The notes under the pieces were generated by a model. The model was not told the DNA's origin and made no database searches. It saw nothing but the letters and a program-made list of their open reading frames with translations. From an uncultured Eubacteriales bacterium (GTDB taxonomy: Bacteria; Bacillota; Clostridia; TANB77; CAG-508), in NCBI GenBank assembly GCA_948468315.1, contig CAOKHL010000005.1, positions 25,971 through 89,970 on the forward strand: a stretch of 64,000 nt of DNA, read 5' to 3'. How positions within the stretch are numbered: position 1 is the stretch's first letter; each line of letters opens with the position of its first letter. This document shows positions 39,323 to 39,520 of this stretch, one piece after another. Position numbers and translations under genes: made by a program.

Positions 39323-39520
39323 TTAAGTAGATTACTTAATGATAATCAAAAAAAATAATCTAATTGCTTATTTTGTAAGCCTTTAGATTATTTTTACTCA
39401 TTATTTTACTCATTTTTTAGTATTAAATTTTTTTAAATCTTTTTTACCATATTTATTGCATTTGTAATACTCTATTGTTATAATATTTTTATTAAATTTA
39501 TCATTAAGTAATCTACTTAA
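39323..39520. promoter_or_regulatory. Candidate invertible promoter element (inverton)
   Basis: 23-bp perfect inverted repeats (39323-39345 and 39498-39520) bracket 152 bp. That segment contains TTGCAT-17-TGtTATAAT (39456-39484) on the plus strand, so the promoter currently points away from the 37454..39295 gene. Confidence 0.6.

Follow-up and report, generated by a model that had tools for sequence, protein, structure and literature searches.

Invertons are a main source of cell-to-cell variation in gut bacteria, and they have been well studied mainly in Bacteroidota and a few pathogens. In Escherichia coli, the fimS element acted on by FimB and FimE places an invertible promoter immediately before the gene of a pilus-type subunit and gives ON/OFF phase variation; it spans 314 bp, has 9-bp repeats and lies beside its recombinase genes. 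In Clostridioides difficile, switching at cmrRST reportedly relocates a promoter, and cwpV is said to use terminator formation. The flgB switch of the same species comprises 154 bp flanked by 21-bp repeats, and the cwpV and flgB repeats have no recognizable sequence identity with each other (PMC5386303). The same paper also describes the invertons of the Bacteroides fragilis capsular-polysaccharide loci, which share a core consensus and are served by one trans-acting recombinase, Mpi (PMC5386303). Among gut Clostridia, the invertons designated group 139 in the hCom2 community are intergenic, are about 230 bp in size and have measured flipping, and nearly all of them have a tyrosine recombinase within 5 kb (PMC11892184).

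Here we describe a 198-bp cassette (39323–39520) in a 64-kb stretch of DNA from an uncultured Eubacteriales bacterium (the window), which on the evidence of its sequence and that of its relatives is probably an invertible promoter switch (inverton) of the gene at 37454..39295, assembled in the OFF orientation. Like the RecV switches of C. difficile (cwpV/Cdi1, flgB/Cdi4 and cmrRST/Cdi6), it is a short cassette in a Firmicute, it lies upstream of a putative surface-structure gene and no recombinase is encoded adjacent to it; its 152-bp segment and 23-bp repeats come close in size to the 154 bp and 21 bp of the flgB switch. It combines a promoter with a terminator, of which cmrRST uses the former and cwpV the latter. 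By contrast, the flgB repeat AAGTT(A/G)CTAT(A/T)TTACAAAAAA is unrelated to the window repeat TTAAGTAGATTACTTAATGATAA, the family to which the window cassette belongs has a clear shared palindromic core, unlike the cwpV and flgB repeats, and the target here is a pilin-like protein, unlike those of the C. difficile switches. The likeness to RecV switches drawn in the first-pass annotation is thus apt as an analogy for the way of working and fails for the repeats, and judged by sequence the cassette falls outside the RecV set. The resemblance to the B. fragilis Mpi system lies in the presence of many loci with a repeat core in common, each with its own invertible promoter and most of them OFF; the phylum and the repeat motif differ, single genes take the place of large operons, and a master recombinase is only presumed here. 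Compared with fimS, the window cassette has longer, palindromic repeats, a terminator in the segment and no adjacent recombinase, and unlike the group 139 invertons it has no recombinase within 5 kb.

The inverted repeat reported in the first-pass annotation is exact: 39323–39345 (TTAAGTAGATTACTTAATGATAA) and 39498–39520 are reverse complements at 23 of 23 positions, with 152 nt between them, and 100 dinucleotide-preserving shuffles gave 0 matches to the 23-mer. If mismatches are tolerated, the repeat extends to 32 nt at 91% (39314–39345 and 39498–39529). When up to three mismatches were allowed, the 23-mer occurred at only two sites in the 64 kb, which are the cassette's own arms, and a whole-window scan returned the cassette repeat as one of three intergenic repeat pairs of this kind. 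Within each arm is a 7-3-7 palindrome that had escaped the earlier description; it reads TTAAGTA-GAT-TACTTAA at 39323–39339 in the gene-proximal arm, where it forms the core motif common to 13 cassettes, and TTAAGTA-ATC-TACTTAA at 39504–39520 in the gene-distal arm. The invertible segment between the arms (39346..39497) can be aligned with the segments of other cassettes. Rfam gave no match in or near the cassette, and a known RNA element was rejected on this ground. Read along the gene strand, the order is spoIID, its hairpin terminator, the distal arm, the segment, the proximal arm, the ribosome-binding site, the 613-aa target gene and a REP-like terminator. The upstream neighbour spoIID (39702..40712, − strand; PF08486, E = 9e-29) is context outside the switch. 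It had been called convergent, which is correct relative to the cassette promoter as assembled and in no other respect, because spoIID itself lies on the − strand. Its hairpin terminator (39640..39694) would also stop an OFF-state transcript from the cassette promoter.

The promoter in the segment, TTGCAT-17 nt-TGtTATAAT (39456..39484, + strand), is of the extended −10 type and is predicted to fire through the distal arm, with the target gene behind it. Its parts are TTGCAT (39456–39461), a 17-nt spacer, TG (39476–39477) and TATAAT (39479–39484). Its previous description as near-consensus suits the −10 element, which is perfect and carries the TG extension, and overstates the −35 element, which matches TTGACA at 3 of 6 positions; because of this weak −35, a generic promoter scan did not list the site, and at 26% G+C, the composition of the window, that scan was uninformative (12 sites against 10.5 expected). 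The −10 element ends 14 nt before the distal arm as assembled; inversion would bring its end to 14 nt before the proximal arm, with a predicted 5′ untranslated region of roughly 55–60 nt for the target gene. On the opposite strand, the segment contains an intrinsic terminator (39348..39400, − strand) that had been overlooked, consisting of a hairpin followed by U8 and ending just before the proximal arm. The hairpin has a folding energy of −20.1 kcal/mol (z = −5.6), and none of 200 shuffles reached equal stability. As predicted from the sequence, this terminator blocks read-through from the spoIID side in the OFF state. The assertion that the gene lacks a convincing promoter in the present orientation needs amending for weak promoter-like hexamers on the gene strand at 39664–39623, and it otherwise stands, given that the segment terminator lies between them and the gene. 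An away-facing promoter and a terminator placed before the gene would together make a coherent OFF state. Equivalent terminator hairpins are present in the three cassettes of locus L036; a significant hairpin was not found in the L034, L049 and L015 cassettes, and the terminator is thus not universal.

The target gene (37454..39295, − strand) begins with an ATG at 39295, 27 nt from the proximal arm, and is preceded by the ribosome-binding site GAGGAG (39306..39311, − strand). A GC-rich REP-like hairpin terminator (37405..37452, − strand) directly follows its stop codon, and the gene is therefore a self-contained single-gene unit. Its 613-aa product has a pilin-like N-terminal helix, a variable middle and an FGE/SUMF-like C-terminal domain. 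The N terminus, MKQREEKG|VTLLVLTITIIVLLII, is pilin-like except that Glu5 is missing (position +5 is Val). The GspG model TIGR01710 matches the protein weakly (E = 5e-4, far below the model cutoff), a profile of the family matches geopilin weakly (0.0026) and SUMF2 (1y4j) at 4e-6 over only about 60 residues, and Pfam gave no match to the protein at 1e-3. Many of the 421 homologs have a precomputed PF03781 (FGE-sulfatase/SUMF) match, and the names that they carry at source include 'type II secretion system protein' and 'pseudopilin PulG'. The AlphaFold (AF2) model of the protein is poor (mean pLDDT 55) and has a long N-terminal helix at residues 6–62, which is confident only at roughly residues 11–30. 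A prepilin-peptidase-like gene (33802..34272) lies about 3 kb downstream of the target gene. These weak matches suggest that the protein may be a pilin, and its surface location and function are presumed. Paralogs are 90–97% identical over the N-terminal 282 aa and 27–42% identical, in patches, over the C-terminal half. Modular Gram-positive type IV pilins are exemplified by Streptococcus sanguinis PilB (PMC8179133), and like such proteins the target joins a pilin-type N-terminal helix to a separate C-terminal module; unlike them, it is without Glu5, its module is FGE/SUMF-like and the window holds no pilus machinery. An exact lookup of the 613-aa protein gave no match, because one residue differs from the protein P0001. 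At the same chromosomal place, contig L002, from another sample, has a 702-aa gene (4001–6109) that shares the N-terminal half and differs in the C-terminal half; as at 37454–39295 in the window, it is preceded by spoIID and an identical cassette, whereas its downstream genes are SBP_bac_5, RecA and HicAB rather than GT4 and YlbF. This difference reflects either paralog recombination or a chimeric assembly through the shared 5′ region.

We collected contigs of the same species through P0001 and P0003 and then by an exact lookup of the SpoIID protein, which gave 11 independent assemblies (10 same-species loci together with L001/L002, duplicates being merged). Samples that hold the species include ERZ14889047, ERZ28622449, ERZ14865207, SRR17684622, SRR17684644 and JGI 3300051405. 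In these assemblies and in the window the cassette is OFF throughout, and the segment is identical at 152 of 152 positions and in the same orientation, with no ON molecule of the window locus seen in these consensus sequences. A consensus assembly reports only the majority orientation, and a minority orientation is invisible in it; the uniform OFF state therefore does not refute flipping. We infer that the window locus itself flips.

A scan for the core motif across the loci fetched with the target-protein family revealed 13 distinct cassettes, in the window and in metagenome-assembled genomes and contigs of uncultured low-GC gut Clostridia. They comprise the window cassette, two in L049 (788–972 and 3282–3466), one in L071 (2781–2977), one at a locus represented by 18 contigs (see below), a second cassette in L015 that lies 4 kb from the latter, two in L025, one in L034, three in tandem in L036 and one in L037; L045 has a repeat pair of variant motif before a pilin-like start, which was left out of this count. 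The arms are 15–28 nt long around the core TTAAG-N7-CTTAA, with half-sites that form a 13-3-13 palindrome in L036, and 137–166 nt separate them. Each of the 13 cassettes has a TG-extended −10 promoter that is directed outward through one arm; it starts at 101–118 nt within the segment, and its end is about 20 nt short of an arm. Moreover, every cassette is found ahead of a pilin-like start codon and on no other side, at a distance of 23–50 nt in most (88 nt for the second L015 cassette and 148 nt for one of the L036 cassettes). This shared placement before paralogs could be due in part to joint inheritance of the gene with its upstream region, and not to independent selection. Twelve of the 13 are assembled OFF, and the one in L037 is ON, in the exact flipped arrangement with the promoter facing the gene. 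The left arm of this ON cassette is tandemly duplicated (L037 5182–5221, two CTTTAAGTTATATACTTAAA copies 23 nt apart), which would give the single right arm two alternative partners.

Exact core sites numbered 26 in 376 kb of non-redundant sequence, against 1.5 expected. Every one of the 11 pairs of cores spaced 100–320 nt apart has reverse-complementary centres (none identical or unrelated), and at least seven different centre sequences are represented, which means that the two arms of a pair co-vary. Such co-variation is what would be expected of recombination sites that need a match at the crossover, and it would be unexpected for operators or decaying duplicates. We had considered that the central triplets might prevent cross-recombination between invertons, and dropped this idea because two of the L036 cassettes have the same centre; the two L025 cassettes, with identical arms, also contradict it. 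The first-pass annotation had suggested looking for further copies of the repeat in the genome, and such copies occur in what is apparently the same organism: the samples that yielded L049 and L071 contain the species of the window as well, and the genes of these two loci share the N-terminal module of the window gene. The organism thus probably has at least four such cassettes, a number that would account for the OFF state of each in most cells. Solitary core sites also occur. At L015 6513 a core site (TTAAGTACAATACTTAA) with an adjacent promoter-like TGATATAAT motif has no partner arm in range and lies about 400 nt upstream of a PD-(D/E)XK transposase-like gene; similar orphan sites are found at L003 10619, L005 903, L007 2680, L016 1041 and L018 3299, and an orphan site of this sort may be a disrupted cassette.

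The 23-mer itself had no match in species-representative genomes or viral contigs and was present in 18 metagenome contigs, several of which carry a human gut label. All 18 represent one locus of a different organism, as the neighbouring genes differ from those of the window. At this locus a homologous pilin-like gene (MKTKEVRGITIISLVV...) has the identical 23-mer right beside its ribosome-binding site; the repeat is followed by about 163 nt with TTGATT-16-TGgTATAAT pointing away from the gene and then by a second arm with one mismatch. In L015 (2700–4881) and other contigs of this locus, gene calling breaks the pilin-like gene into an ORF of 192 aa and, after it and in a different frame, one of 512 aa. 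Several of the contigs repeat the 192-aa call, and the split may represent a frameshift, two separate genes or a second layer of phase variation.

Contig L014 forms a perfect hairpin whose 1,380-nt arms contain no mismatch. On the left it has the OFF junction. At its right junction the inner flank of the distal site is joined to the outer flank of the proximal site, and the junction carries the proximal-site base at the single position at which the arms differ. In related contigs that show both arms, these share only 15 identical nt; if the same holds in the sample from which L014 came, such a junction would need reads from ON molecules. The right junction is probably a recombinant ON junction of a sister species, with a fold-back or assembly artefact as a possible alternative. 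The cassette is where many of the sister organism's contigs break off. We set these ends aside as evidence of flipping, because repeats shared by paralogous cassettes could break assemblies.

The window also contains a second, unrelated inverted pair (19151–19191 and 19305–19345), with arms of 41 nt that are 100% complementary and 113 nt inside. It lies upstream of 18619..19032 and 16269..18611, and an inner TGCTATAAAT motif points at both genes. In the same-species scaffold L066 (ERZ28623435), what comes after the distal arm is the end of the inner segment in reverse complement. This second element is thus inverted in that sample and its orientation varies between samples, which implies that the species has active DNA inversion. 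A sibling of the second element at 3685–3851 (33-nt arms at 94%, 101 nt inside, 85% identical overall; no match in Rfam) lies upstream of a response-regulator/histidine-kinase operon (2966..3631 and 1729..2964), in the same orientation relative to its own gene as the 19151–19345 element.

A recombinase gene, which the first-pass annotation had proposed to look for, did not come to light: Pfam searches of about 60 ORFs found no tyrosine or serine recombinase in the 64-kb window, and those of 20 neighbouring ORFs found none in the flanks of about 6 kb around related cassettes. Likewise, phmmer searches of 705 ORFs with XerD and Hin probes returned no recombinase, although this is a weak test. 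Because 64 kb would not be expected to reveal an enzyme encoded elsewhere in the genome, the negative result is no argument against the switch. The IS200-like gene at 59961..60728 was rejected as an invertase, since it matches a REP-associated tyrosine transposase model. By analogy with RecV and Mpi, we infer a trans-acting recombinase encoded elsewhere in the genome. One may speculate that a tyrosine recombinase with a 7-bp overlap would suit a site like this one, in which palindromic half-sites enclose an asymmetric centre of odd length.

We propose that the switch would work as follows. In the OFF state, the extended −10 promoter would point away from the gene, with its transcript running into the spoIID terminator, and the cassette terminator directly before the gene would stop read-through. 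The recombinase would bind the palindromic core of each arm (TTAAGTA-N3-TACTTAA, in which the half-sites reach about 13 nt), and strand exchange around the asymmetric central triplet would flip the 152-bp segment. In the ON state, the promoter would lie about 20 nt inside the proximal arm and transcribe through that arm into the ribosome-binding site and the gene, the terminator having moved to the far side, upstream of the promoter. The predicted ON junctions are CATAACTTATTC-TTAAGTAGATTACTTAATGATAA-ATTTAATAAAAATATTATAACAATAG on the + strand at the proximal site and GCAATTAGATTATTTTTTTTGA-TTATCATTAAGTAATCTACTTAA-CAACAAATTTCAC at the distal site. With several paralogous genes that each have a cassette of their own, most copies would be expected to be OFF in most cells.

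The uniform OFF orientation and identical segment of the window and the 11 same-species assemblies, together with the lack of a recombinase in the window, would also suit a locked or fossil switch, descended from a working inverton in which flipping ended when the recombinase was lost or silenced, so that the gene is now permanently silenced or expressed by other means. We regard this as unlikely. The arms are perfect over 23 nt, neither the promoter nor the terminator nor the ORF is damaged, samples that hold the species also contain sister cassettes with the same arms (L049 and L071) and another inverton of the species is polymorphic; moreover, a minority orientation would be hidden from consensus assemblies. 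Less probable again, and indeed improbable, is a static MITE-like mobile or duplicated element with terminal inverted repeats and a chance outward promoter. Its size of 198 bp, its terminal repeats, the several copies per genome and the TTAA at both ends, readable as a target duplication, have this flavour, yet the terminal TTAA belongs to the palindromic core and no transposase is associated with the cassette. Such an element would also have to have landed a short way ahead of a pilin-like start codon, and never on the other side, in 13 of 13 cases. There is no presence/absence polymorphism, the cassette being found in every one of the 11 same-species assemblies as it is in the window, and across distant genomes the interior has diverged while the promoter position and arm cores are conserved. 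The ON homolog in L037 and the recombinant junction in L014 would be left unexplained.

The 7-3-7 palindrome in each arm is of a type bound by dimeric regulators, and with cores 181 bp apart from start to start, the arms could be two operators that flank the promoter and repress it by looping, without recombination. This has slightly less to recommend it than a mobile element, for it offers no reason why the asymmetric centres and outer flanks should be mirror images in 11 of 11 pairs, or why the promoter in 12 of 13 cassettes should be directed away from the one gene beside it, and it too fails to explain the L014 junction. As for chance, a G+C content of 26% raises the rate of AT-rich repeats in intergenic DNA, and generic promoter-like hexamers are no commoner here than in shuffles; the probability of a fortuitous inverted repeat is nevertheless negligible, as this is refuted by the 0 of 100 shuffles, by the identical 23-mer in the same context elsewhere and by conservation across the family. 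The inverton reading, put forward as a candidate in the first-pass annotation, is strengthened by the recurrent design, the fixed place of the promoter, the ON homolog, the recombinant junction, the co-varying arm centres and the further copies in apparently the same organism, and those of its predictions that could be tested were all borne out.

In its way of working, the cassette is an ordinary invertible-promoter switch that leaves the concept of phase variation unchanged; the repeat family is previously undescribed. We found no paper that prints the cassette repeat strings and none that links invertons to pilin-like genes in Clostridia, each of which is limited evidence of novelty, and the strings TTAAGTA and TACTTAA and the word 'pilin' are absent from the accessible part of the hCom2 supplementary text (PMC11892184). 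The cassette defines a recognizable repeat family tied to one family of proteins, the modular pilin-like proteins. Its signature, paired TTAAG-N7-CTTAA about 180 bp apart with an outward TG-extended −10, would allow phase-variable surface genes to be found in metagenome-assembled genomes without reads, the defined DNA site could be used in seeking the recombinase, and the family hints that, in the host, these organisms vary a surface structure resembling an adhesin. To a broader reading we give an even chance: that uncultured low-GC gut Clostridia have a multi-locus system of surface variation, in which modular pilin-like paralogs each have their own promoter-plus-terminator inverton and one recombinase acts on all of them in trans. 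The paralogs would share an N-terminal pilin and stalk module and differ in swappable FGE/lectin-like C-terminal modules, the invertons would be roughly 200 bp in size, and the recombinase site would be a 13-3-13 palindrome (core TTAAGTA-N3-TACTTAA) whose asymmetric central triplet sets the direction of the site. If true, the system would be the equivalent, in a Firmicute, of Bacteroides capsule switching, and would bring a new site motif and possibly a new recombinase subfamily.

Several other features of the window merit mention. The IS200-like gene at 59961..60728 (255 aa) is flanked by 102-nt inverted repeats (59859–60850), which contain a GC-rich, terminator-like hairpin (GGGACAGGTC...GACCTGTCCC) that recurs at several gene ends, at 20482–20527, 37393–37464, 53731–53790 and 54771–54828; gene and hairpins together look like a RAYT/REP system in a Firmicute of 26% G+C. 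A sigma factor at 40709–41429 (− strand), downstream of STAS and SpoIIAB-like genes, is split between two frames, with region 2 in 41046..41429 and region 4 in 40709..40996; this is no one-off assembly error, because the gene calls of the same-species contigs L001/L002 and L051–L060 share the split. A surface or cellulosome-type cluster at 42385–47621 encodes a cadherin-like protein, a Big_2/SH3/dockerin protein, a sortase and a cohesin protein. Of the Rfam families, one alone exceeded its gathering score in the window, the 6S RNA (RF00013, 65.7 bits) at 27315–27513 (− strand).
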